Below, piece after piece: positions 1 through 10,958 of a stretch of DNA of 32,000 nucleotides. Position numbers and translations under genes: made by a program. The stretch comes from Candidatus Heimdallarchaeota archaeon B3_Heim (GTDB taxonomy: Archaea > Asgardarchaeota > Heimdallarchaeia > Hodarchaeales > Hodarchaeaceae), in contig NJBF01000004.1 of the NCBI GenBank assembly GCA_003144275.1, positions 94,559-126,558 of the forward strand, in the 5' to 3' direction. Position 1 is the stretch's first letter, and the number at the start of each line of letters is the position of its first letter. The notes below the pieces were generated by a model that saw only the letters and a program-made list of their open reading frames with translations, searched no databases and had not been told where the DNA came from.

Positions 1-1329
1 TTGAACACCGAGCTTCACCCCTCAGAACGTTATAGTAATGAGGCAGAAATTCTCCATATTGATATTTTAGCAGCAGGCAACATGGACACAGTCGCTCACG
101 AATTTCAACATCTTATTCATTTTGGTCATGATGATGATGAAGAAACTTGGTTCGAAGAAGGAGCATCAATGTTTGCAGAGTATTTAATTGGCGGTGATGC
201 CTTTAGTGGTGGAGTTGGTACAGATTTTCAAGATAATCCTGATGTTTCATTAACTTATTGGGATCTAGGAGGTTCCTCGGTTCTAGCTAATTATGGTGCA
301 TCCTACACATTCTTCTTATATTTAGCTGAACAATATGGGGGTAATCTCATTATCAAAGATTTAGTTGAACGATCAGTAAATGGAATTACAAGTATAGAAA
401 ATTCTCTGATCCAGAGTGGATATGATGTCCCATTCGTAGAAGTATTCCGCAATTGGACAATTGCTAACTTCTTAGATGATACTTCATTTGCAGATGGGGC
501 TTATGGGTATTACAATGATAGTGTATTAGTCAACACCGAATATACATATGTAATGTCGCCGCTACCTCGTACTGAGAATTCTGTTCCGTTTTGGGGAACG
601 GATTACTTGAAGTTCAGTTATCCCAGTGAACTACCTTTTACATTTGAGTTTCAAAGTGAATCTTCTGATGGTTTTCTAGTTAGTATAATCATGAAAAACA
701 CAACTACAATTCCACTGAATACAGAGGTCATTCCGATTATGATCACTCCTGATGGCTTCGGAAACTTTTCTACATCAGAACTAAACATCACAGCCGACGA
801 AATATATGTTGTCGTGAGTGCCTATACTGAGGCCGGAACTCCTGACCACGACGATGAGAATCCTGCACCTGCACAAGAATATTGGTTCATTGTTAATCCA
901 GAAGGAATCTACATAGCCCCAGGTACTCTCATCTATTTAGATAATATCCTCAATCTAAGTAATATTACCGTGGTTGATTCCCACGGCTTTGTGTGGGTGG
1001 TTGCTGATGGTGCCACCTACGAAATATTATCCTCAACTGGTGAAACAACTGGTATTACAGGTACCTTCGTCTATGATTCAGAGAACCAAAGTTGGCAAGC
1101 GCTCAATATCGATCTTGGAACGCTTTCACAAGACGAATATAAGGTTAAATATATGTTTTATAATACCACATCAACTGGAATCACTTATTCAGAAATATTT
1201 ACCACCATTATCTCGACGACACAGACCACATCGGCCTCTAACTCCACAAATACAATAATTCCAGGATTTCTTGCAGTCTTCTTAATCATTACAATGGGAG
1301 CATTTACCCGTTCACGGAAACGGAAATAA
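1..1329 (+). CDS. Cell-surface zinc metallopeptidase (HExxH; M30/MA-like), 5'-truncated by the window, with a C-terminal PGF-type sorting signal
   Basis: HEFQHLIH zinc motif followed by WFEEGASMFAE. C-terminus is a Thr/Ser-rich linker, then IPGF, a hydrophobic helix and the basic tail RSRKRK. Confidence 0.75.
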   Translation: MNTELHPSERYSNEAEILHIDILAAGNMDTVAHEFQHLIHFGHDDDEETWFEEGASMFAEYLIGGDAFSGGVGTDFQDNPDVSLTYWDLGGSSVLANYGASYTFFLYLAEQYGGNLIIKDLVERSVNGITSIENSLIQSGYDVPFVEVFRNWTIANFLDDTSFADGAYGYYNDSVLVNTEYTYVMSPLPRTENSVPFWGTDYLKFSYPSELPFTFEFQSESSDGFLVSIIMKNTTTIPLNTEVIPIMITPDGFGNFSTSELNITADEIYVVVSAYTEAGTPDHDDENPAPAQEYWFIVNPEGIYIAPGTLIYLDNILNLSNITVVDSHGFVWVVADGATYEILSSTGETTGITGTFVYDSENQSWQALNIDLGTLSQDEYKVKYMFYNTTSTGITYSEIFTTIISTTQTTSASNSTNTIIPGFLAVFLIITMGAFTRSRKRK

Positions 1330-1354
1330 GACTCTCCAATAATACTGCCTCTTA

Positions 1355-3025
1355 TTATTTTTCAAAAATAAGAATACTTTGATGAACAACGCTTGGGATA
1401 TAAGAATAAGGATAGCCAAAAATGTGGAGGGCCTTATCGGGTGCATACCACACAATTTCCTCACGAAAATGATAACCAAGTGACACTAGGATTTCTGCAA
1501 GTGACGAAGCAAGGAGTAAAAATCGACCAACCTTAATTGATCTTCCCTCTTGTTGTTCTGTCAATGTTCGATACATATTACCGATAAATACGGCTAAAAT
1601 TCTTCCATTAGCGAGCTTGCTAAAGCAATCCCTGAAGACATTCTGAACCAGATCGCGCCATTCCTGGATTGTAAGGATTGTAGCTTGATCAAACTGTTTA
1701 AGAGAGGAATGAAGCTTTTCTTTTGACTCCTCCCCCGCTTTGGAAAATCGACCACGAGTTTTCCTCAATTTGTCCATTGCCCAGTATGGAACATCTGTCA
1801 TTATCATCCCTATACTTTCATCCTCAATAATCTCATTTACGATGTGAGTTGAGTCTCCGACCACGTATGTTTGTTCTGGTAATTGCATACGTCGACACAC
1901 TTCATAGTATACCTCTTGCCATTGAGTATTGATATCAATACCAATCGCTTTCCGACGAGCAAGTGAAGCACCCAATAAAGAACCTCCAACACCCACAAAT
2001 GGATCAAGAATGAGGTCAGTTTGGTTTGGGGAATAACGACGGATTAAATACTCGATTAATTCAGGTGGTTTCATTCCACCATGTTGACCACGCAATTTAT
2101 GCTCAAAAGAAGGAGGAAAACTTCTGTGCAACATGAAAGTAGGCCCAATGGGGAGCTGCGATTGATCAGTAAAATCAAGCGCCTGAGAAGGATTCGATAT
2201 AAATGACTCTTTACGCAATACTAGGAATCGTCTTTGAGGAGGTATGACTGTTATTTCTTCTTTAGAATTTGAAGGTTCAAACCAGAATCGCTCGGCTTTT
2301 AAAATTAGCCCTAACGAGTTCAGTTGAGTCGTCATTAATTTTGTTAAGGCAAAGTTCCATTCTTGAGATCTTTTTTCGTCATTAGTTGTAATTTGATTAT
2401 AGAAAGGAATTGCTAAGACCATATACCCATTTTCTATCAACTTTGAGGCAGTATTTCTGATTTTATTAGTAACCTCCCTTACCCACCCATTTATTGCGGC
2501 AGTAAATTGGGATTCTGTTAACTGGTTTTCCTTTATACTTTGATTGAGCATATCTGTTAAAACAAAATTGATGGAATTATCAGCGACTTGGGTAAGCTCA
2601 GAAAATGGTTCATATGTTATTTTACCTAAATTAGTGATCTTTAAATAATCCACTACCTTCCTGAATTTATCTAAGTTAACTGGATCACTATCTAAACCAA
2701 TTATTGATCGGTCAGATGATTCAAATTTCATATTAGTATAATAACCAGCTAATAATGTACTTCCAAGTCCTGCGAGGGGATCAAGAATGATACCATCAGG
2801 TTTAGTAAATGTTTCAATGAATTCTTGACTTAAATCGATTGGAAGTGAATGTAAACCGCGACTATTAGTGGGGGGAGGAAAACGAGAGGGGAAAACTTTT
2901 GGAATAATGGTTTTAGTCGAAAATAACCACTCTTTCCCTGTGAAATCATTGAGGGCATTTCTTCTATCATATACCCCACGCTCTAAACGATCTTCCTGAT
3001 AGTCTTTCAACGGTTTTTGTGGCAT
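1355..3025 (-). CDS. Tandem two-domain DNA N4-C/N6-A methyltransferase-like protein; first domain appears degenerate
   Basis: Two SAM-binding motif I copies (ILDPLAGLGS, ILDPFVGVGG). Motif IV-like sequence is TDVPYW in the second half but TDML in the first. N-terminal NALNDFTGKEW resembles this MTase family. Confidence 0.7.
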   Translation of the reverse strand: MPQKPLKDYQEDRLERGVYDRRNALNDFTGKEWLFSTKTIIPKVFPSRFPPPTNSRGLHSLPIDLSQEFIETFTKPDGIILDPLAGLGSTLLAGYYTNMKFESSDRSIIGLDSDPVNLDKFRKVVDYLKITNLGKITYEPFSELTQVADNSINFVLTDMLNQSIKENQLTESQFTAAINGWVREVTNKIRNTASKLIENGYMVLAIPFYNQITTNDEKRSQEWNFALTKLMTTQLNSLGLILKAERFWFEPSNSKEEITVIPPQRRFLVLRKESFISNPSQALDFTDQSQLPIGPTFMLHRSFPPSFEHKLRGQHGGMKPPELIEYLIRRYSPNQTDLILDPFVGVGGSLLGASLARRKAIGIDINTQWQEVYYEVCRRMQLPEQTYVVGDSTHIVNEIIEDESIGMIMTDVPYWAMDKLRKTRGRFSKAGEESKEKLHSSLKQFDQATILTIQEWRDLVQNVFRDCFSKLANGRILAVFIGNMYRTLTEQQEGRSIKVGRFLLLASSLAEILVSLGYHFREEIVWYAPDKALHIFGYPYSYIPSVVHQSILIFEK

Positions 3026-3055
3026 CTCCTTAAACGCCTAGCATTTATAATTTCA

Positions 3056-3355
3056 TTATATTGATAAAAGCACCCACAATATAACAGGGAGGCCAAACAT
3101 TAGTAATAGCCCAATGTAACCTGCTAATCGAATACGTACCACTCGTGTTTGGCATGGTTTACAATAATATTTCTGAATGAAATCACGTTTCTGCCCAATA
3201 AACTGCGAAAAAAAGTTCTCGTGCCAATCCTCTACAATGCAATCAGTACAAAAGAATTTATGACATCTCTCACATTCTTTCGTGTCATAACTCTTTGAAT
3301 GATTGACACACACTGATCCCTGTTTCCGTGAGATTTGTCTTTTTGTGTTACCCAT
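3056..3355 (-). CDS. B-box-like zinc-finger protein with C-terminal transmembrane helix
   Basis: CxxH...CxxC...CxxC plus a later CxxC; hydrophobic C-terminus GYIGLLLMFGLPVILWVLL. ATG at 3355 preferred over TTG at 3373. Confidence 0.65.
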   Translation of the reverse strand: MGNTKRQISRKQGSVCVNHSKSYDTKECERCHKFFCTDCIVEDWHENFFSQFIGQKRDFIQKYYCKPCQTRVVRIRLAGYIGLLLMFGLPVILWVLLSI

Positions 3356-3525
3356 GATTCTTTCACAATTCAAGTTTTAAGGGGTAGTAATGGTTAAAAA
3401 AATACCTTAATTTTGAGTATTTATCATTAAAGATCAATCTTACCATATGAGTATTTTCCGTCCCAATGTTTTGAATTTTTACCAAAATAATAATATATTA
3501 AATCTGTTCACTTTTTATTTATAAG

Positions 3526-4734
3526 ATGATATCTATGATCTGCCGTCTAGCCACGAATGATGACAAAGAAGCAATTAGGAAAATTAGAGTCTATGCATTC
3601 GAGGGAAGAAAAAATCAATATGACCCTCCAAAAGTAGCTGGTACAAAGCCTTTAGTGGTTTATCCATTAATAGATTATGTCGTAGAAGAGGATAATACGA
3701 TTACAGCGGCCATAGGTGTAATAGATTTTAGTCAGCGTATTCGAGGAGTATGGGTAAGAATGGCAGGCATTTCAGCTGTCGCATGCAAACCAGAATATCG
3801 AAGGAAACATCATATCACTAAATTACTCGAATTCTTATTTAAAGATCTTGACAAGAAAGAATACCTTGTCTCTTCTCTCTACCCCTTCTCTTATGAATTT
3901 TATGAAAGGGTAGGGTATGCGCATGTAGATTCCCTAGAAGTATATACCGTTCGATGTTCTGATATAAACCAAAAACCCACTCCAAACCGTCGGATAGAGG
4001 AAGATTATGATTCCGAGTTTGCACGATGTCAACCCCTGTACCAAAAAATGACGGCAAAAATTGATGGATTAGTAAAACGTCCTTCGAATATTTGGAAAGA
4101 TTTGTTAGGATGGAGATGGTATGAAAACGGGTTTCAATTTATTTGCCAAGATCTTGAAGGGAATGATCTAGGATATATTATCATTCGATTTGAGCAAAAA
4201 AGTCACCAAAACAAATTTCCTTTTATTGAAGTAAAAGAAATGGTCAGTTTTGACCCTGAAACGAAGCAAGCGTTACTAAACTTTCTAGCAAATCATGATT
4301 CGCAACGAAAACATATACAATTTGCTCCACTCGATTCAAACTACCTGCTCTTTATGAAGAATCCTGATATTAAAGAAAAACGGTCAAAGACCAATTCGAT
4401 GTTTAGGATACTAAATATTGAGAAACTTCTCCCTAAACTAAATTTCCCAGCAGATATTGCAGAAGAAGTGTGTTTCACGATTTCGGATCCCAATTGCTCT
4501 TGGAATAATAAAACATTCGAATTACATATAATTAAAGGCAAGGGTCAAGTAATGATTAGCCAAAACGATTCTAATCTTCTATTGACCATTAATTCATTAA
4601 GCCAAATCATTTTTGGGTTTTATTCAGTCGCAGAATTGGCAGAAGTAGGAAAAATAACTGGTTCTCCTACTGAGATTAATAAATTATCATACATATTCCC
4701 AAAACAGTCAGCTACTCTTCGTGATTATTTCTAA
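3526..4734 (+). CDS. eis: Eis-family GNAT acetyltransferase with SCP2-like C-terminal domain
   Basis: GISAVACKPEYRRKH acetyl-CoA motif, LYPFSYEFYERVGY, C-terminal CPWN-like (CSWNNKTF) region, 402 aa. Confidence 0.85.
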   Translation: MISMICRLATNDDKEAIRKIRVYAFEGRKNQYDPPKVAGTKPLVVYPLIDYVVEEDNTITAAIGVIDFSQRIRGVWVRMAGISAVACKPEYRRKHHITKLLEFLFKDLDKKEYLVSSLYPFSYEFYERVGYAHVDSLEVYTVRCSDINQKPTPNRRIEEDYDSEFARCQPLYQKMTAKIDGLVKRPSNIWKDLLGWRWYENGFQFICQDLEGNDLGYIIIRFEQKSHQNKFPFIEVKEMVSFDPETKQALLNFLANHDSQRKHIQFAPLDSNYLLFMKNPDIKEKRSKTNSMFRILNIEKLLPKLNFPADIAEEVCFTISDPNCSWNNKTFELHIIKGKGQVMISQNDSNLLLTINSLSQIIFGFYSVAELAEVGKITGSPTEINKLSYIFPKQSATLRDYF

Positions 4735-4925
4735 TCGTCTTTTACTCATCTTTCAGTATGTTTTAGAATTACCAGACTCCGTAGACAACCAACTATAAGC
4801 ACTACTGATTGTATATACAAATTGAACCTTTTAATAGCGATTTATCCTAGTCACTGTTCCGTCATTTATACCTTTAAATAGATCTATGCCCTGAAGTATA
4901 TCAGAAGATTGATTTTATTAGAGTT

Positions 4926-5201
4926 GTGAATTGGATGATGGAAAATATAACGTTAGAAATGGCTGAAGCAAAATTAATAACATCTCTAAGTAATTTAGTT
5001 TGGATACTCCCATGTTTAATGATATTAGAGAATATTATATCTATTGGTTTCTTACAGAACGATACCTGGAGTTCCAAGGGGACAATGTCAATTTTAACAA
5101 CCGTTTTATGGGTTGTTGTAATCTTCAAAGTCATCAATGTTGTAGAACGTCAACTCAATGCTGAACGAGAACTCCGAATTAAAAGGTACAAGTCTAGGTA
5201 A
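4926..5201 (+). CDS. Small membrane protein, two predicted TM helices
   Basis: 91-aa ORF filling the intergenic gap, with two hydrophobic segments and a charged tail. Confidence 0.45.
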   Translation: MNWMMENITLEMAEAKLITSLSNLVWILPCLMILENIISIGFLQNDTWSSKGTMSILTTVLWVVVIFKVINVVERQLNAERELRIKRYKSR

Positions 5202-5211
5202 TACGATTAAA

Positions 5212-6474
5212 TTACTCTGGCTTACTAAACGAATATTGACGATCAAAATCTCCCGAGAGAATCTCATCATGAGCTAGGCGACCGATTTCGGAGTGAACTT
5301 GGGGAAAAAGGGGAACAGGCTTTTCTGATGACCAGGGTGTACCAGGTAGTGGCATGAAATAATGTAACCGAACGCGGGCTTTTCTTCCAAGGTCGCGCAT
5401 CACTTCAAGCGTATCCCATTGATCTTGCTCAGTTTCTGAAGGAGTTCCGAGAATGAAATCAAAGACAGGCGTATAGCCCTGAGAAGTTAGCAGATCGTAC
5501 GCACGCATTCCTGCGTCTACGGTGTGTCCACGACGCATATCATGAAGGATTTTATCAGAACCACTTTGAAATCCAACTGAAATTTGAGTATTATCGACCG
5601 AGGAAAAGATAGAAACAATATCTTCTGTGATATATTCGGGTCTAACTTCAGAGGGAAAGGTTCCTAAAAATAACCGAACATCATACTGACGAATCTGCTG
5701 AACTAATTCCTTGAGTATGGGGATATTCGGGATCCCTCGTTTTTTCTCCATGTAACCTAATGAATTTGGTGCAATAAATCGTATATCCACCTGTTTTTTC
5801 AATGGATGAAAATACTCGTAATAATGCTCAATTATCTTTAAGATGGCATCTATAGATCGAAACTTTGGATTTCCATACATATATGGTACTTGACAGAAAC
5901 GACAACGAAACGCACAACCACGCATGATTTCAATGGGTGGGTGAAGAGGAAAAGGTTCATGAACCGAATAAGGACAATAATGATTAAGATCAATACGTGG
6001 ACGTGCGGAAGTTTGTACCAAATCATCATTTGTATCCAGATACCCAATACCTGGAATGGTAAGTGGATGATGGAGAGAAAAATGTTGTTTACTTAACGAG
6101 TGTATGAGTTCAGGAAAAGTTACCTCTCCTTCACCAATTACAACGAAATTTGCACCCATTTTCAGAATCTCAAGGGGGTTTCCTGAAGCATGAGGGCCTC
6201 CGATAACTGAGATCACTTCTGTAGAGGAAAAATTGTCATTTAAACTCTTTAATCGAGTTTTCAACTCTGAAAGAGTCATATTTCGTGAAGATTCTCCATA
6301 AATTACCCTATATCCCTTGGAAGTCCAATTTTCAATCGTTTTAGTAACTTCCCCCTTGATAACTTCAAATGGAATATTATGCTGAGAAAGACTTGCTGAT
6401 ATTGCTCCAAAAGCATACCAAGTGATTTTATCCCAATAAAGTAAAACGACATACTTATTGACATCTTTTAACAT
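5212..6474 (-). CDS. B12-binding-domain radical SAM protein (TIGR04013 / MJ1487-like)
   Basis: IGGPHASG...VVIGEGE B12-binding-like N-domain; RGCAFRCRFC CxxxCxxC motif; IRFIAPN; GTFPSEVRPE. Confidence 0.85.
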   Translation of the reverse strand: MLKDVNKYVVLLYWDKITWYAFGAISASLSQHNIPFEVIKGEVTKTIENWTSKGYRVIYGESSRNMTLSELKTRLKSLNDNFSSTEVISVIGGPHASGNPLEILKMGANFVVIGEGEVTFPELIHSLSKQHFSLHHPLTIPGIGYLDTNDDLVQTSARPRIDLNHYCPYSVHEPFPLHPPIEIMRGCAFRCRFCQVPYMYGNPKFRSIDAILKIIEHYYEYFHPLKKQVDIRFIAPNSLGYMEKKRGIPNIPILKELVQQIRQYDVRLFLGTFPSEVRPEYITEDIVSIFSSVDNTQISVGFQSGSDKILHDMRRGHTVDAGMRAYDLLTSQGYTPVFDFILGTPSETEQDQWDTLEVMRDLGRKARVRLHYFMPLPGTPWSSEKPVPLFPQVHSEIGRLAHDEILSGDFDRQYSFSKPE

Positions 6475-6554
6475 AGAAAAAAGCCCTTGTATAAATATAA
6501 TTAAAGAAAAGTAAGGAATCCCTTGGCCGTGATTCGAACACGGGACAACTCGGT

Positions 6555-6607
6555 GACTACCCTGACTAACAACCTCATCATCGATTACTCAAAGGTGTGA
6601 CTTTTGC
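6555..6607 (-). other. tRNA intron 2, canonical position 37/38, 53 nt
   Basis: C32-U33-G34-U35 pairs with intron GUAG (6560-6557); bulges AG|G and UC|A38 give a BHB. Removal restores a 7-nt anticodon loop. Confidence 0.88.
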
Positions 6608-6623
6608 CTACAGCCGAGGGCTC

Positions 6624-6652
6624 ATTAGACTAGGGCTCTACACGAGCCATAG
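6624..6652 (-). other. tRNA intron 1, non-canonical D-loop position (~21/22), ~29 nt
   Basis: Removal restores D loop AGCCTGGAAA-GAGC. Central helix TGGA/TCTA with 3-nt bulges AA|C and AT|G; internal hairpin GGCTC/GAGCC. The BHB is relaxed, so junctions may shift by 1-2 nt. Confidence 0.75.
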
Positions 6653-6981
6653 TTTCCAGGCTGAGCTACCAAGGGAAAGGATTCATCTAGTGATTTTAAG
6701 ATCTGGTTCTGATAAGGATATTTCTCCTATTTTCCAAATCTCACCATGAGACACGATAAAAGAATATTTTATATTCATTCTGTAGTTATCAAATTTAATT
6801 TTTTAGGTTTGAATCTCTTAGCATTGTCGGATATAAACGAGAACTCCACCTATAATGTTTCCAGGGATCTTTTCCGGATTAATATCTGTTGATAAAGGAC
6901 TGTTTCATAATGAGAACTTGATTCTTGGGTGTATAAAAATAATTAAAACTATTAACTATAACCTTCTATTCTAATTAAGAG

Positions 6982-7839
6982 TTGAAACTAGAACTGAAAC
7001 ATATTTATGCTGAGAGAGACACCTGGAGAAGGGTGTATCATGATCTTAGCCAAAAAGGATATACACATAAAAAACTTAAAGAAACATTTGGCACGACTTT
7101 ATATCACCAACGATTTGTTGGTTATGGGTTGACTAAGGAGAAGTTTGCTAAATTACAAGAAATTCTTGAGTATCAGATACCGACAATTCCAAATCCACAT
7201 GGGATCAAACCTAAATTCCTTGAAAAAAATGAAAAATTAGCTGAACTGATTGGAATAATCCTTGGAGATGGTGGAATGTCGAAAAACTCAATTGTTATTT
7301 CGATACATTCGGAAAATAAAGAATACATAAGAAAGGTAACAATTCTAATTAATGATGTATTTTCCTATGCGCCAAAATACCATAAGCGGAAAAATAAGAA
7401 TGTCATCGATGTGAAAGTCCACTCGCAAGGAATTGTGCTTTCATTATTAAATCTAGGTTTAGATACAGGAAATAAGGTGAAAAAACAAGTAAATATCCCT
7501 AAATGGATTAAAAAAAATGATTCTTTTTTTATTGCTTGTGTAAGAGGATTAATTGATACGGATGGATATATTGGAAAATATGTAAAGAAAAGAGGTAAAT
7601 ATACTTGGTTTCAATATCATGTTGGTTTTGATAATTATTCTCTTAACTTGCTTAGCGATTTCGTTGAATTTTGCAATCGTTTCGATATCCCAGTATCACG
7701 CACTAGTAAGTACAAAGTAATCATTGGAAGTAGGAGAGGAGTATTAAGAATCTTGAAGATTACACAGCCTTTCAAACTAAAAAACATAAAGTTTGACCTC
7801 AATGAATTGGGAAAACACTTGGCCAATATTCCTTCATGA
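6982..7839 (+). CDS. Free-standing two-motif LAGLIDADG (DOD-type) endonuclease with ~80-aa N-terminal extension
   Basis: LAELIGIILGDGG (D96) and CVRGLIDTDGY (D194), ~100 aa apart. Block D-like KKQVNIPKWI and block H-like LLSDFVEFCNRFDIP are present; no Hint splicing motifs. Lys-rich and AT-rich. Confidence 0.85.
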   Translation: MKLELKHIYAERDTWRRVYHDLSQKGYTHKKLKETFGTTLYHQRFVGYGLTKEKFAKLQEILEYQIPTIPNPHGIKPKFLEKNEKLAELIGIILGDGGMSKNSIVISIHSENKEYIRKVTILINDVFSYAPKYHKRKNKNVIDVKVHSQGIVLSLLNLGLDTGNKVKKQVNIPKWIKKNDSFFIACVRGLIDTDGYIGKYVKKRGKYTWFQYHVGFDNYSLNLLSDFVEFCNRFDIPVSRTSKYKVIIGSRRGVLRILKITQPFKLKNIKFDLNELGKHLANIPS

Positions 7840-7885
7840 ACTAAATAGCTACTCATCTTGTGTTTGCATTTCTAATATTGTTTTA

Positions 7886-7944
7886 AGGGTTCATTAGACT
7901 ATGATTCTACTCAAGCCACAGCTTTCAGGTTGAGCTACCAAGGG
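7886..7944 (-). pseudogene. Degenerate copy of the tRNA-Tyr 5' part (position 1 to ~29, including the D-loop intron); direct repeat of 6617-6675
   Basis: Ungapped hand alignment gives 49/59 identity, 8 of 10 differences being transitions. G19, G15 and one D-stem pair are lost; no anticodon arm or 3' half follows. Confidence 0.85.
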
Positions 7945-8047
7945 GAAAGCACGAATTACTAGTCAAACAGGCGGCAGAATGAATCTATATAGAGATTCAC
8001 ATGACCTCAGAGGTAGAAAAGAATGAAAATTCTATCTTGAGAAGCAG

Positions 8048-8452
8048 TTATTCTTGAGAAGTTTGGGCTTCCAAGAGGATTTCTATTTTATCGAGACGCT
8101 TGTTGATTTTTTGTAAGGAAGTCATAATCAGTTGAAGACGTCGATCGACAGCAGAAGCGTCACCTGTTGTTTCGAATTCTTGGGGTACAAGCGATTTGCC
8201 TTCGGCTAATCCCGCATTTTTGTATAGTTCCCCTGCAACTTGAGCTAGTAATGCTTTTGGTACTTGATGCTCGATGTCTGCTTCTTTACAGGCTAATTTC
8301 AGACCAGTTTCAACGACCGCCTCTGATAAGTGCTCGCCTAAGTCAACAGAAGTAGCTACATCGCCACGAAATATAAGTTCAACGACAGGATTCCCTTCTC
8401 TTTTTGTTAAACGGGCTTTAAAGGCCATTCCTGGAATATTTGCTTCGGGCAT
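8048..8452 (-). CDS. Hypothetical protein with C-terminal coiled coil
   Basis: 134-aa ORF with ATG start; heptad tail LQLIMTSLQKINKRLDKIEILLE. Confidence 0.7.
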   Translation of the reverse strand: MPEANIPGMAFKARLTKREGNPVVELIFRGDVATSVDLGEHLSEAVVETGLKLACKEADIEHQVPKALLAQVAGELYKNAGLAEGKSLVPQEFETTGDASAVDRRLQLIMTSLQKINKRLDKIEILLEAQTSQE

Positions 8453-8580
8453 TAGATTTTTCCTCGTAAAAGTGTATTCAATAGTTTAGAATAATAGGTG
8501 AATCGGAAAGTGATATACACTTTCTAGTAATTCAATGCGCATTAATAATCATATGTAAATTCAGATGTGGGAATGGAAGT

Positions 8581-8940
8581 CTAACCACCGAACATATCTT
8601 TAATTCCACGGCGAATCGAATCAAGGAAAGATAACCCATTCATCATTAAGCGTTGGATCTCCAGTAAATATCGTCTACGGGAAAGAGTTTCTTGAAATAC
8701 TAAGTATAATATACCGACATTACTGATAGCCGCAAAACCAACGATTAATCGTACAAAAATCAAGTTTTCATTACTTTCAAACGCAAAAAGTAGAATAGAT
8801 GCCACAATCAATAATATAGTTGAGATAGCCAACAATAATGTTGCTACTAGCCAGAAAAGATATTCGTGTTCGAGCTGTCGTACTTCTCCACGTCCTGAAT
8901 CTAAAAATTTTCGAATAGAAGGGGGAATAGCTGATATCAG
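8581..8940 (-). CDS. Small membrane protein, probably starting upstream of the called TTG (8835) at CTG 8940 or ATA 8937
   Basis: Frame is open from 8940. GAGGTG SD-like motif at 8949-8944. Two hydrophobic helices. Confidence 0.55.
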   Translation of the reverse strand: MISAIPPSIRKFLDSGRGEVRQLEHEYLFWLVATLLLAISTILLIVASILLFAFESNENLIFVRLIVGFAAISNVGILYLVFQETLSRRRYLLEIQRLMMNGLSFLDSIRRGIKDMFGG

Positions 8941-8986
8941 TTACACCTCTCACGATACAACTCTTGAGTCCTCATAGAATGCCAGA

Positions 8987-9796
8987 TTAATTAACACTTC
9001 TACTTTCTGCTTCTGATTGAAGATCAGGTATAATATACTTTAATCCAGTCGAGGCATCTCGTCCGACTATTACTTTCACACCATACGCATCAAGGATAGA
9101 TTCTACATTAATCACATCATCAGGAGATCCAAGAACTCGAATCTGTCCATTTTTCAAGATTATGAGGCTATCACAATATTGGGCAGCAAGAGCAAGGTCG
9201 TGCAGTACAAGTATCACTCCAATCTGTTTGGTATGACATACTTCTTTACATAACTCCATAATTTTGTACTGCATATTGATGTCAAGATGGAGCGTTGGTT
9301 CATCAAGACAGAGAATTTTTGGATCCTGTGCAAGACCTAGTGCAATAGTCACGAGTTGTTTTTCCCCTCCACTGAGCTCACTAACATCTCTATTCACAAG
9401 ATGAGTTATTCCCACTCGCTCCAATGCTGAATTCACAATTTGATAGTCCGTTTCTGACTCTCGTTGATATACCCCCAAATGTGGATATCGCCCCATAAGA
9501 ACGGTTTCAAATACTGTAAATCCTGCAGTAAAACTACTAATTTGTGGGACAACTGAAAGTATTCGTGCAAGTTCTTTCCTTTTATATTGGGTTATTTCCT
9601 TGTCGTTGATATGAATAGAACCCTGATCCACTTTTAATATACCAGCAATACACCGCAAAAGCGTGGTTTTTCCAGAGCCATTAGGCCCAATAATTCCAAT
9701 AATCTGCCCTGGACCTGCATTAAATGTGATGCTATCGAGGATTTTTACGTCTTCATACTGAAAAGACACCTTTTCAACCTTTATTTCCATTTTCAT
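8987..9796 (-). CDS. btuD: Cobalamin/Fe-chelate ABC transporter ATP-binding subunit (BtuD/FepC-like)
   Basis: Walker A GPNGSGKTT, signature LSGGEKQ, Walker B LCLDEPT, H-loop VLHDL. Confidence 0.9.
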   Translation of the reverse strand: MKMEIKVEKVSFQYEDVKILDSITFNAGPGQIIGIIGPNGSGKTTLLRCIAGILKVDQGSIHINDKEITQYKRKELARILSVVPQISSFTAGFTVFETVLMGRYPHLGVYQRESETDYQIVNSALERVGITHLVNRDVSELSGGEKQLVTIALGLAQDPKILCLDEPTLHLDINMQYKIMELCKEVCHTKQIGVILVLHDLALAAQYCDSLIILKNGQIRVLGSPDDVINVESILDAYGVKVIVGRDASTGLKYIIPDLQSEAESRSVN

Positions 9797-9803
9797 TCCT
9801 CGT

Positions 9804-10958
9804 TCAGTATCCTGTCTTCTTGTATTTTCTTAAAAGATAAAGAAAAAATGGTGCACCACAAAAAGCAGTTATTATTCCAACAGGCAGCTCAGTTGGATAA
9901 ATGATAGTTTTTGCAACAACATCTGCTAAAATCAAAAAGCTTGCACCACTTAGAGCGGAAACAGGAAGCAAAATTCGATGGTCAGGCCCCGTAATCAATC
10001 GAACCAAATGTGGAATAATCAGCCCAACGAAACCAATAACTCCTGTAAAGGCAACAGAAATTGCAGTCATTAAAGTAGCTAAGACTAATAATAATTGTCG
10101 AAGTTTTTGTACATCTAATCCACGAAATTGTGCAGATTCTTCACCTAACAATAATAAATTTAAGGGTCGCGATAATAAAAGGCAAAGAAAACAGGAGGGG
10201 ATAATAACCATGGCTGCAATAAGCACAGAATCCCAATCCCCTTCAACTAATGATAAACCGCCCATTAACCAGAAAACAATAGGTCGTAAATGTTCTCCTG
10301 AAATATATGTCAAAAAAGATGTGATTGCAGTCATGAAAGATCCAACTGTAATTCCCGACAGAAGTAAGGTATCAACACTAATTGTACCACGAATATTTGA
10401 AATGTAATACACTATCGTAATTGTAATTAGCGCCCCACCAAATGCAAAAATAGGAAGAGTGTAGCCTGCTAAGAAGAATAGCGATCCACCAGCAACTATG
10501 GCGATTGAAGCTCCAACCGAGGCCCCAGATGCCAAACCAATGATATACGGATCAGCCATAGGATTCCGAAAAAGCGCTTGCATTACCGTTCCTGCAACAG
10601 CTAATGCCATTCCAGCAAAAGCACCCATAATAACCCTTGGAAGACGAATATCCCAGATAATCACTTTTGAAATATCTGTACTGCCACTTATGGGGATATT
10701 CAAGAATTCGAGTAAAGGACGAATAATATTTTTCCCAATTTCTCGCAGTACATCAAAAATACTAAAAATTCTTGTACTTGCTGGACCAAATGGACCAGCA
10801 GATCCAAACATAATTGCAAAGACTATACTAAAAACAAGTCCTAATGAACTTGCAGTTATCATCAAAGTCCAGTATAATCTCCTTCGTTGATATCGCTCAA
10901 GGGACGTATGAAGAATAGTATCGTCTGTTCCTTTTTGCAGGTTCTGCGACATCTTCAT
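9804..10958 (-). CDS. btuC: FecCD/BtuC-family ABC permease
   Basis: IRLPRV, QALFRNPMADPYIIG, GVIGFVGLIIPH, ELPVGIIT motifs. Confidence 0.92.
   Translation of the reverse strand: MKMSQNLQKGTDDTILHTSLERYQRRRLYWTLMITASSLGLVFSIVFAIMFGSAGPFGPASTRIFSIFDVLREIGKNIIRPLLEFLNIPISGSTDISKVIIWDIRLPRVIMGAFAGMALAVAGTVMQALFRNPMADPYIIGLASGASVGASIAIVAGGSLFFLAGYTLPIFAFGGALITITIVYYISNIRGTISVDTLLLSGITVGSFMTAITSFLTYISGEHLRPIVFWLMGGLSLVEGDWDSVLIAAMVIIPSCFLCLLLSRPLNLLLLGEESAQFRGLDVQKLRQLLLVLATLMTAISVAFTGVIGFVGLIIPHLVRLITGPDHRILLPVSALSGASFLILADVVAKTIIYPTELPVGIITAFCGAPFFLYLLRKYKKTGY

Follow-up and report, generated by a model that had tools for sequence, protein, structure and literature searches.

A tRNA-Tyr gene of a Heimdallarchaeota genome probably invaded and rebuilt by a free-standing LAGLIDADG homing endonuclease cassette

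The cause of the interrupted, split and oddly intron-bearing tRNA genes of archaea has been debated since split tRNAs were found. Protection against integrating elements is the usual suggestion and, to our knowledge, there is little direct evidence for the aggressor. Here, a stretch of 32,000 nucleotides (nt) from Candidatus Heimdallarchaeota archaeon B3_Heim (contig NJBF01000004.1, positions 94,559 to 126,558 of the forward strand, assembly GCA_003144275.1) was analyzed, which is called the window below and to which all positions refer. It harbors a free-standing LAGLIDADG homing endonuclease gene between an intact tRNA-Tyr gene and a second copy of the 5′ part of this tRNA gene. The arrangement is probably the result of an invasion of the chromosomal tRNA-Tyr gene by a cassette that carried the endonuclease gene.

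Parts of this arrangement are known from other systems. Mobile endonuclease open reading frames (ORFs) of fungal mitochondria, such as that in atp6 of Allomyces macrogynus, bring a foreign gene terminus and leave the original one as a downstream pseudogene; there, the 3′ end of an organellar protein-coding gene is replaced, whereas here a chromosomal tRNA gene appears to receive a 5′ part, a 3′ part or a whole substitute. The tRNA-Thr(GGU) gene of Caldiarchaeum subterraneum carries an insert of 1,868 bp with an 813-bp ORF (about 270 amino acids (aa)), which its authors described as a putative DNA recombinase on SVMProt evidence and for which they invoked pNOB8-type integration (Sugahara et al. 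2012, PMC3293823); LAGLIDADG and homing are nowhere mentioned in that paper. The two loci are alike in that a single ORF lies beside the tRNA, a 5′ fragment (positions 1-27 in Caldiarchaeum) keeps the native upstream flank, the junction lies at the same tRNA position, the tRNA was rebuilt with an incoming 5′ part bearing an extra intron, and empty and occupied alleles occur in one population. They differ in that the ORF of the window is demonstrably a LAGLIDADG gene in an Asgard host, while the Caldiarchaeum ORF was compared by the description in the paper only. SegB of the phages T4 and T6 is likewise a free-standing endonuclease that is statistically tied to tRNA genes, and it drives inheritance and duplication of adjacent tRNA DNA, tRNA-Tyr included (PMC13096335). 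Unlike the endonuclease of the window, it has a GIY-YIG fold and is encoded in a phage genome between intact tRNA genes, with no interrupted gene and no replacement part. The best matches in sequence and fold, I-Tsp061I and I-DmoI, are monomeric double-motif archaeal enzymes as well, but their genes lie inside bulge-helix-bulge (BHB) introns of rRNA genes and are spliced out with them, whereas the gene in the window is free-standing, antisense to the tRNA and encodes an extra N-terminal helical domain. No account of tRNA genes being rebuilt by chromosomal LAGLIDADG cassettes in archaea was found in a literature search. The novelty of the locus lies in the combination of a free-standing homing endonuclease with the replacement of a gene part, each of a kind already known.

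The features of the locus are given below with the evidence for each. G000 denotes the source genome B3_Heim (assembly of 3.95 Mb), and the other G and L numbers denote comparison genomes and loci. Close homologues carry names from the Asgard order Hodarchaeales, to which the source genome belongs.

6519 to 6675, minus strand: intact tRNA-Tyr(GTA) gene of 157 nt with two intervening sequences (manual splicing to a cloverleaf)
6555 to 6607, minus strand: canonical intron of 53 nt at tRNA position 37/38, gene positions 69-121 (splicing, congener alignment)
6617 to 6675, minus strand: working 5′ part of the tRNA gene, gene positions 1-59, which arrived with the insert (its upstream flank is cassette sequence)
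6627 to 6655, minus strand: D-loop insert of 29 nt, gene positions 21-49, a hairpin with a relaxed bulge-helix motif (fold, allele comparison)
6683 to 7885, no strand: inserted DNA of 1203 nt (missing from the empty-site genomes)
6982 to 7839, plus strand: free-standing LAGLIDADG homing endonuclease gene, 285 aa (Pfam, alignment, fold, dN/dS)
7886 to 7944, minus strand: displaced original 5′ part of tRNA-Tyr with D-loop insert, decaying (49/59 identity, contiguous native flank)
7945 to 8047, minus strand: native upstream flank and promoter region of tRNA-Tyr (aligns upstream of tRNA-Tyr in G013 and G003)
6300 to 8900, no strand, limits approximate: divergent haplotype block around the insert (identity to G013)

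The two-intron tRNA-Tyr gene was missed in the whole window by ARAGORN, with or without the intron option, and by Rfam at gathering thresholds. It was shown by manual splicing, since the default ARAGORN and Rfam runs gave no tRNA in the window. Acceptor stem and T-arm are perfect on the minus strand of 6519-6675, and a clean cloverleaf of 75 nt for tRNA-Tyr(GTA) resulted once gene positions 21-49 and 69-121 were spliced out. Since only these inserts of 29 nt and 53 nt have to be removed, the endonuclease ORF is not part of an intron of the tRNA.

Between the intact tRNA-Tyr and the 59-nt copy lies a single gene, antisense to the tRNA, which encodes an intact LAGLIDADG endonuclease of the double-motif type. 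The copy has the same orientation as the tRNA gene, is identical to gene positions 1-59 at 49 of 59 positions and is the only further match of the tRNA-Tyr 5′ part in the 3.95-Mb assembly (BLAST, E 9e-11). A mismatch in its D-stem is visible, and its homology stops at mature tRNA position 28-29, in the 5′ strand of the anticodon stem. In a BLAST comparison with G013, window positions 1-6682 and 7886-10390 both aligned, with an overlap of 67 nt on the single tRNA 5′ part of G013. The upstream flank of the intact gene is unrelated to the native flank and shared with the occupied relative L069. Since the native flank adjoins the fragment and not the intact gene, the fragment is the displaced resident 5′ part, and the working one came with the insert. 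The alignments show that the resident tRNA-Tyr gene was interrupted at about mature position 28/29, and that the intact gene is a chimera in which a cassette-borne 5′ part was joined to the resident 3′ part. The original 5′ part with its promoter is stranded 1.2 kb upstream, where it evolves neutrally; the TATA-like CTATATAG at 7985-7992 in the native flank now serves the orphan fragment only. The G+C content of the insert is 31%, compared with 36% for the window.

The first-pass annotation, which was made from the sequence alone, had already described the tRNA-Tyr gene, the 59-nt copy and, as the only gene between them, an antisense, AT-rich LAGLIDADG ORF with D96 and D194 and with no integrase or transposase beside it. 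It had proposed that a unit of about 1.27 kb (1.2-1.27 kb by the present limits) duplicated the tRNA 5′ part, with subsequent decay of the upstream copy. The description was accurate in each of these respects, and the proposal agrees with the empty sites described below and with the native flank beside the fragment. An assembly artefact, which it had named as an alternative, could be excluded: a Logan contig from a public run spans 7806-7956, i.e., the junction of endonuclease gene and fragment, and the same layout is present in independent assemblies. Contig support came from four public runs, and public runs contain only 6-13% of the sampled words of the stretch. One weak empty-site joint, from 6554 to 7886 (side 27, single contig), was contributed by a relative in the public runs.

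Throughout the genus, tRNA-Tyr lies between the radical-SAM gene and the 134-aa gene. G013 is the closest relative, with neighboring proteins that are 89-99% identical to those of the window. Only 309-314 bp separate these two flanking genes in G013 and G003, and the interval contains one tRNA-Tyr and no endonuclease gene. Identity to G013 is 96-99% across most of 10 kb, but only 83-92% in a block of about 2.6 kb that reaches about 400 bp to the left and about 1 kb to the right of the insert, and the tRNA region of the window is nearer to G003 than to G013. The locus thus shows presence/absence polymorphism at one site, with flanks that appear co-converted. The divergent block fits co-conversion or recombination during import or loss of the cassette, whichever allele moved.

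Homologues with protein identities of 55-82% lie between tRNA-Tyr and the 134-aa gene in six more assemblies (L069, L070, L071, L073, L074 and G014), i.e., the slot is occupied in at least six other Hodarchaeales assemblies. Four of the six keep a displaced 5′ fragment (matching at 22/24, 20/26, 24/26 and 28/29 positions) that abuts or lies near the endonuclease stop codon and is followed by a native-type promoter. In L069, the displaced fragment is gone. In G014, the orientation of the tRNA is opposite, and the orphan is a 49/54 copy of anticodon loop and canonical intron, which indicates that the cassette there supplied the 3′ part. Stable synteny of the ORF without a tRNA, which would have spoken against a tRNA-linked element, was not found; the ORF of the relatives is always accompanied by the tRNA and usually by the fragment. 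The distribution within the genus is patchy: of the 22 genomes searched, 4 yielded a close (family-level) homologue, which stop codons disrupt in one of these genomes; the genomes are incomplete metagenome-assembled genomes (MAGs), in which a gene not found is not necessarily absent.

A second tRNA gene has met a paralogue of the endonuclease. In G008 and G021, a paralogue with 44% identity is encoded downstream of Pus10, L21e and RpoF, at the tRNA-Pro(CGG) locus. On contig C232 of G008, a tRNA-Pro(CGG) of the 'GGGTAGG' type is broken after position 29. The gene continues from position 27 beyond an interval of 1.7 kb, which contains the endonuclease gene and a complete tRNA-Pro(CGG) of different sequence with two introns. 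Contig C32 of the same MAG carries an uninterrupted tRNA-Pro with the same downstream flank and ends inside the 5′ part of this tRNA; the flanks of C32 and C232 are identical at 146 of 151 positions, and their alignment begins exactly at position 27. The native tRNA-Pro(CGG) is intact and intron-less in G015 and G010. In G021, the endonuclease gene is a pseudogene and the orphan tRNA-Pro halves are decayed, while only endonuclease remnants of 65 aa (G012) and 15 aa (G009) stand beside the replacement tRNA-Pro, and in G011 and G000 (C80:45477-45593) the replacement-type tRNA-Pro stands alone. These states match the cycle of invasion, decay and loss that is expected of a homing element, the apparent end product of which is a replaced tRNA gene. 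An interrupted host gene, a part supplied by the cassette and a decaying orphan were found at both tRNA-Tyr and tRNA-Pro.

The tRNA-Pro(CGG) of G000 at C80:45477-45593 is of the GGGACG type, with D-loop and T-loop introns and a U7-C66 mismatch in the acceptor stem. In L086 (G015), the first bases of the intact tRNA-Pro(CGG) recur as a 10-nt copy, GGGTAGGTAG, just past the RpoF stop codon and at a distance of about 120 nt on the upstream side of the tRNA; chance or an earlier event could account for it. The interruption in G008 was also considered as a giant spliceable intron or a split tRNA, which was rejected, given the replacement tRNA with the same anticodon inside it and the decay of the orphan halves in G021.

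Linkage to tRNA genes extends to the wider family. The first-pass annotation had suggested that homologues be scored for tRNA adjacency; besides the paralogous cassette in tRNA-Pro, ARAGORN placed a tRNA at most 300 bp from the endonuclease match at 66 of the 80 related loci that were compared, which came from Asgard archaea, DPANN archaea and candidate phyla radiation bacteria. The count is over loci that are not phylogenetically independent, and it includes a few ARAGORN calls of dubious appearance. By chance, a tRNA within 300 bp is expected for a few per cent. The linked tRNA genes mostly lie directly downstream on the same strand and comprise more than 10 isoacceptors. Further Asgard copies are located 17-330 bp from tRNA-Thr(TGT) (twice, in differing arrangements) and tRNA-Arg(TCG). 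The duplicated segment differs by locus, being a 5′ part, a middle/3′ part or both halves of the interrupted gene, and the junctions are all at tRNA positions 26-30 across the three architectures. In L080:1447-3756 (G076), the endonuclease homologue (profile-search E 1.3e-64) lies inside an open frame of 769 aa, which may be a fusion or an intein-like arrangement.

The endonuclease gene of the window starts with TTG at 6982 or else with GTG near 7033. Its product has an N-terminal helical domain of about 80 aa followed by two LAGLIDADG domains. The ORF matched Pfam LAGLIDADG_3 (7.9e-11), while the N-terminal 85 aa gave no Pfam match. Both LAGLIDADG motifs end in a catalytic acidic residue, and in an alignment of 13 family members D194 is invariant and D96 nearly invariant. 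The AlphaFold2 model (predicted local distance difference test score of 87.5) predicts the pseudo-dimeric alpha-beta-beta-alpha-beta-beta-alpha fold; its top Foldseek matches were I-Tsp061I (E 3.9e-11) and E-DreI, and sequence matches in the PDB were I-Tsp061I and a chimera of I-DmoI. The ratio of nonsynonymous to synonymous substitution rates (dN/dS) was 0.14-0.21, which indicates purifying selection. With both catalytic Asp residues, the predicted LAGLIDADG fold and this dN/dS, the endonuclease looks functional.

The invasion of the tRNA-Tyr gene by a homing endonuclease cassette, which we consider probable, may have proceeded as follows. Besides the endonuclease gene, the 1.2-kb insert contains its own copy of tRNA positions 1 to about 29 and an upstream sequence that is new to the tRNA gene. 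The enzyme would introduce a double-strand break near positions 26-30 of unoccupied tRNA alleles, and repair of the break would copy the cassette from an occupied allele and co-convert flanking sequence over a few hundred bases. Where the cassette reaches a tRNA gene for the first time, it would do so by illegitimate insertion at the break, so that it would carry whichever tRNA part keeps the host viable, i.e., a 5′ part, a 3′ part or an entire replacement gene, depending on the locus. The element would then spread, decay and be lost, and it may leave orphan tRNA pieces or a replaced tRNA gene behind.

Several points weigh against this explanation. Cleavage activity and cut site of the endonuclease are predictions, the latter from the junction positions 26-30. 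The rebuilt tRNA restores the same exon sequence across the junction, so that immunity of an occupied allele would have to rest on the flanks, on introns or on weak self-cutting. Recombination between the direct repeats could have excised the cassette precisely, in which case the empty sites were once occupied. The left junction (6608-7011) has no independent read or contig cover in the four public runs. One point in favor, a modest hint of lateral movement, is itself limited: in three of four close pairs, synonymous divergence (dS) was about twofold lower for the endonuclease gene than for its flanking genes, with similar G+C contents at third codon positions, but this is a simple Nei-Gojobori estimate in AT-rich genes. 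The protein identity of the endonuclease follows that of the flanking genes, which also fits long vertical residence with repeated loss.

Identity that tracks the flanks, together with purifying selection, would likewise suit a domesticated host gene. In that case, the ORF would be a long-resident, WhiA-like DNA-binding factor, and the tRNA fragments would derive from unrelated local duplications or inversions. The slot and the orientation of the ORF relative to the flanking genes are conserved, the locus is prone to rearrangement (the tRNA orientation flips, and G007 and G011 carry unrelated inserts), and WhiA is among the fold matches of the model. Domestication is nevertheless unlikely. WhiA is not known to retain the catalytic Asp residues, whereas both are conserved in the endonuclease. 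Of 22 genus genomes, only 4 yielded the gene, and pseudogene and remnant copies exist. Moreover, the paralogue shows empty/occupied polymorphism within one MAG at tRNA-Pro, and the divergent haplotype block at tRNA-Tyr is tied to presence/absence.

Direct repeats of a tRNA part around foreign DNA are the classic signature of integration, and the layout in Caldiarchaeum agrees with that of the window: tRNA positions 1-27 form the 5′ fragment, the insert measures 1.87 kb, and the copy that came in bears one more intron. The locus could accordingly be the relic of an integrating element of the pNOB8 or SSV type with its att site over the tRNA 5′ part, from which all was lost but a passenger LAGLIDADG gene. 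This origin is very unlikely. Neither in the insert nor within about 5 kb was an integrase, recombinase or transposase domain found with Pfam, and the insert holds one ORF, the LAGLIDADG gene, and no tyrosine-recombinase gene. The minimal unit of endonuclease gene and tRNA piece recurs in at least seven assemblies. A fixed att core would not give a duplicated part that varies while the junction stays at 26-30; identical core repeats of one fixed segment were not observed, the repeats of G000 being 83% identical. Finally, it is the endonuclease family that tRNA linkage follows (66/80 loci).

The introns of tRNA-Tyr bear on a further proposal. The exons are nearly invariant over 18 congeners, whether or not the endonuclease is present. 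The D-loop insert is missing from the intron-less alleles of most congeners, and in the stem of its hairpin, G000 differs from G013/L069 by compensatory changes. The canonical intron is constant in position and variable in sequence among the congeners. An additional T-loop intron is present in tRNA-Tyr of G012 (L060), G007 (L059) and G008 (L066), with mutually unrelated sequences. The tRNA-Tyr of G010 (L053:5327-5488) has another D-loop insert of 19 nt between perfect 12-nt direct repeats, AAGAGCCCTCGG, which cover tRNA positions about 20-31. This insert resembles the footprint of a partial duplication at the 26-30 junction, and it could be a newborn intron.

The first-pass annotation had proposed that the enzyme cuts only tRNA-Tyr alleles without the D-loop intron, and that endonuclease and BHB intron spread together with the intron conferring immunity. 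Three observations suit such a role: the D-loop insert at 20/21 lies about 8 bp from the inferred junction, inside the 20-22 bp typical of a LAGLIDADG target, endonuclease and intron occur together in G000 and L069, and the incoming tRNA-Pro has introns, which the native gene of G015 and G010 lacks. However, the two do not co-occur consistently at tRNA-Tyr. The D-loop intron is present without the endonuclease in G013 and G003 (G010 has the different insert), and the endonuclease stands beside an intron-less tRNA-Tyr in G014, L070 and L071, the fragments of L070 and L071 being intron-less too. Furthermore, the displaced fragment of G000 already contains the intron, so that the invaded allele would have been intron-bearing. 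Co-spread with the intron as immunity is thus highly improbable. A weaker form of the idea may survive, based on the tRNA-Pro introns and on the position of the 20/21 insert inside the target span. Of the overall proposal in the first-pass annotation, the selfish unit that is linked to the tRNA and works without an integrase was retained, and the co-mobility of the intron was given up.

A group I intron can be dismissed, as the Rfam scan of the window gave no group I intron and no other family, PMC6125680 reports group I introns of archaea solely from rRNA genes, and the ORF, antisense to and outside the tRNA, is contained in no BHB intron, self-splicing intron or intein.

Homing endonuclease invasion as proposed for tRNA-Tyr would be a concrete way in which tRNA genes of archaea become broken and replaced. 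It names an aggressor in the form of a nuclease family with a tRNA neighbor at most of the sampled loci (66/80), and the natural intermediates (empty, occupied, decaying and replaced) are found in one Asgard genus with a defined junction. A selfish element could, by the alignments presented here, replace a chromosomal tRNA gene partly or wholly while its function is retained. It is possible, although tentative, that the family is a general engine of disruption and turnover of archaeal tRNA genes, also in Asgard lineages, that cuts where the D-arm meets the anticodon stem and installs replacements which often bear introns, the Caldiarchaeum 'recombinase' ORF being one of its members. If so, decaying cassettes would leave behind orphan halves as well as short inserts between repeats, which the splicing endonuclease could remove, and the family would give rise to non-canonical tRNA introns, split tRNAs and replaced tRNA genes, with tRNA-Tyr of G010 as a possible footprint. 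The enzymes would also represent new, naturally diverse meganucleases with conserved and predictable targets.

Further rearrangements were observed in the slot between the radical-SAM and 134-aa genes. The orientation of tRNA-Tyr varies within the genus (13 congeners, L051-L063), being minus in G000, G003, G013, G012, G016, G019 and G021 and plus in G002, G006, G009, G011 and G014. In the slot of G007 (L059:6268-8889), exon positions 1 to about 38 of tRNA-Tyr form a 5′ fragment; next comes an insert of 2.4 kb, the 654-aa ORF of which has no Pfam family, and then a full tRNA-Tyr in reversed orientation. The insert may be a different element exploiting the same tRNA. In G011 (L057:8818-10287), a DUF2334 (polysaccharide-deacetylase-like) protein is encoded in a 2.2-kb insert in the interval between radical-SAM gene and tRNA-Tyr. 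Genes of the IS605/IS607 type (TnpB/OrfB) are inserted beside the locus in two relatives (L069:5509-6714 and L074:1108-2825); in L074, a resolvase gene is present as well, and the insertion lies directly upstream of a shortened endonuclease gene (229 aa).

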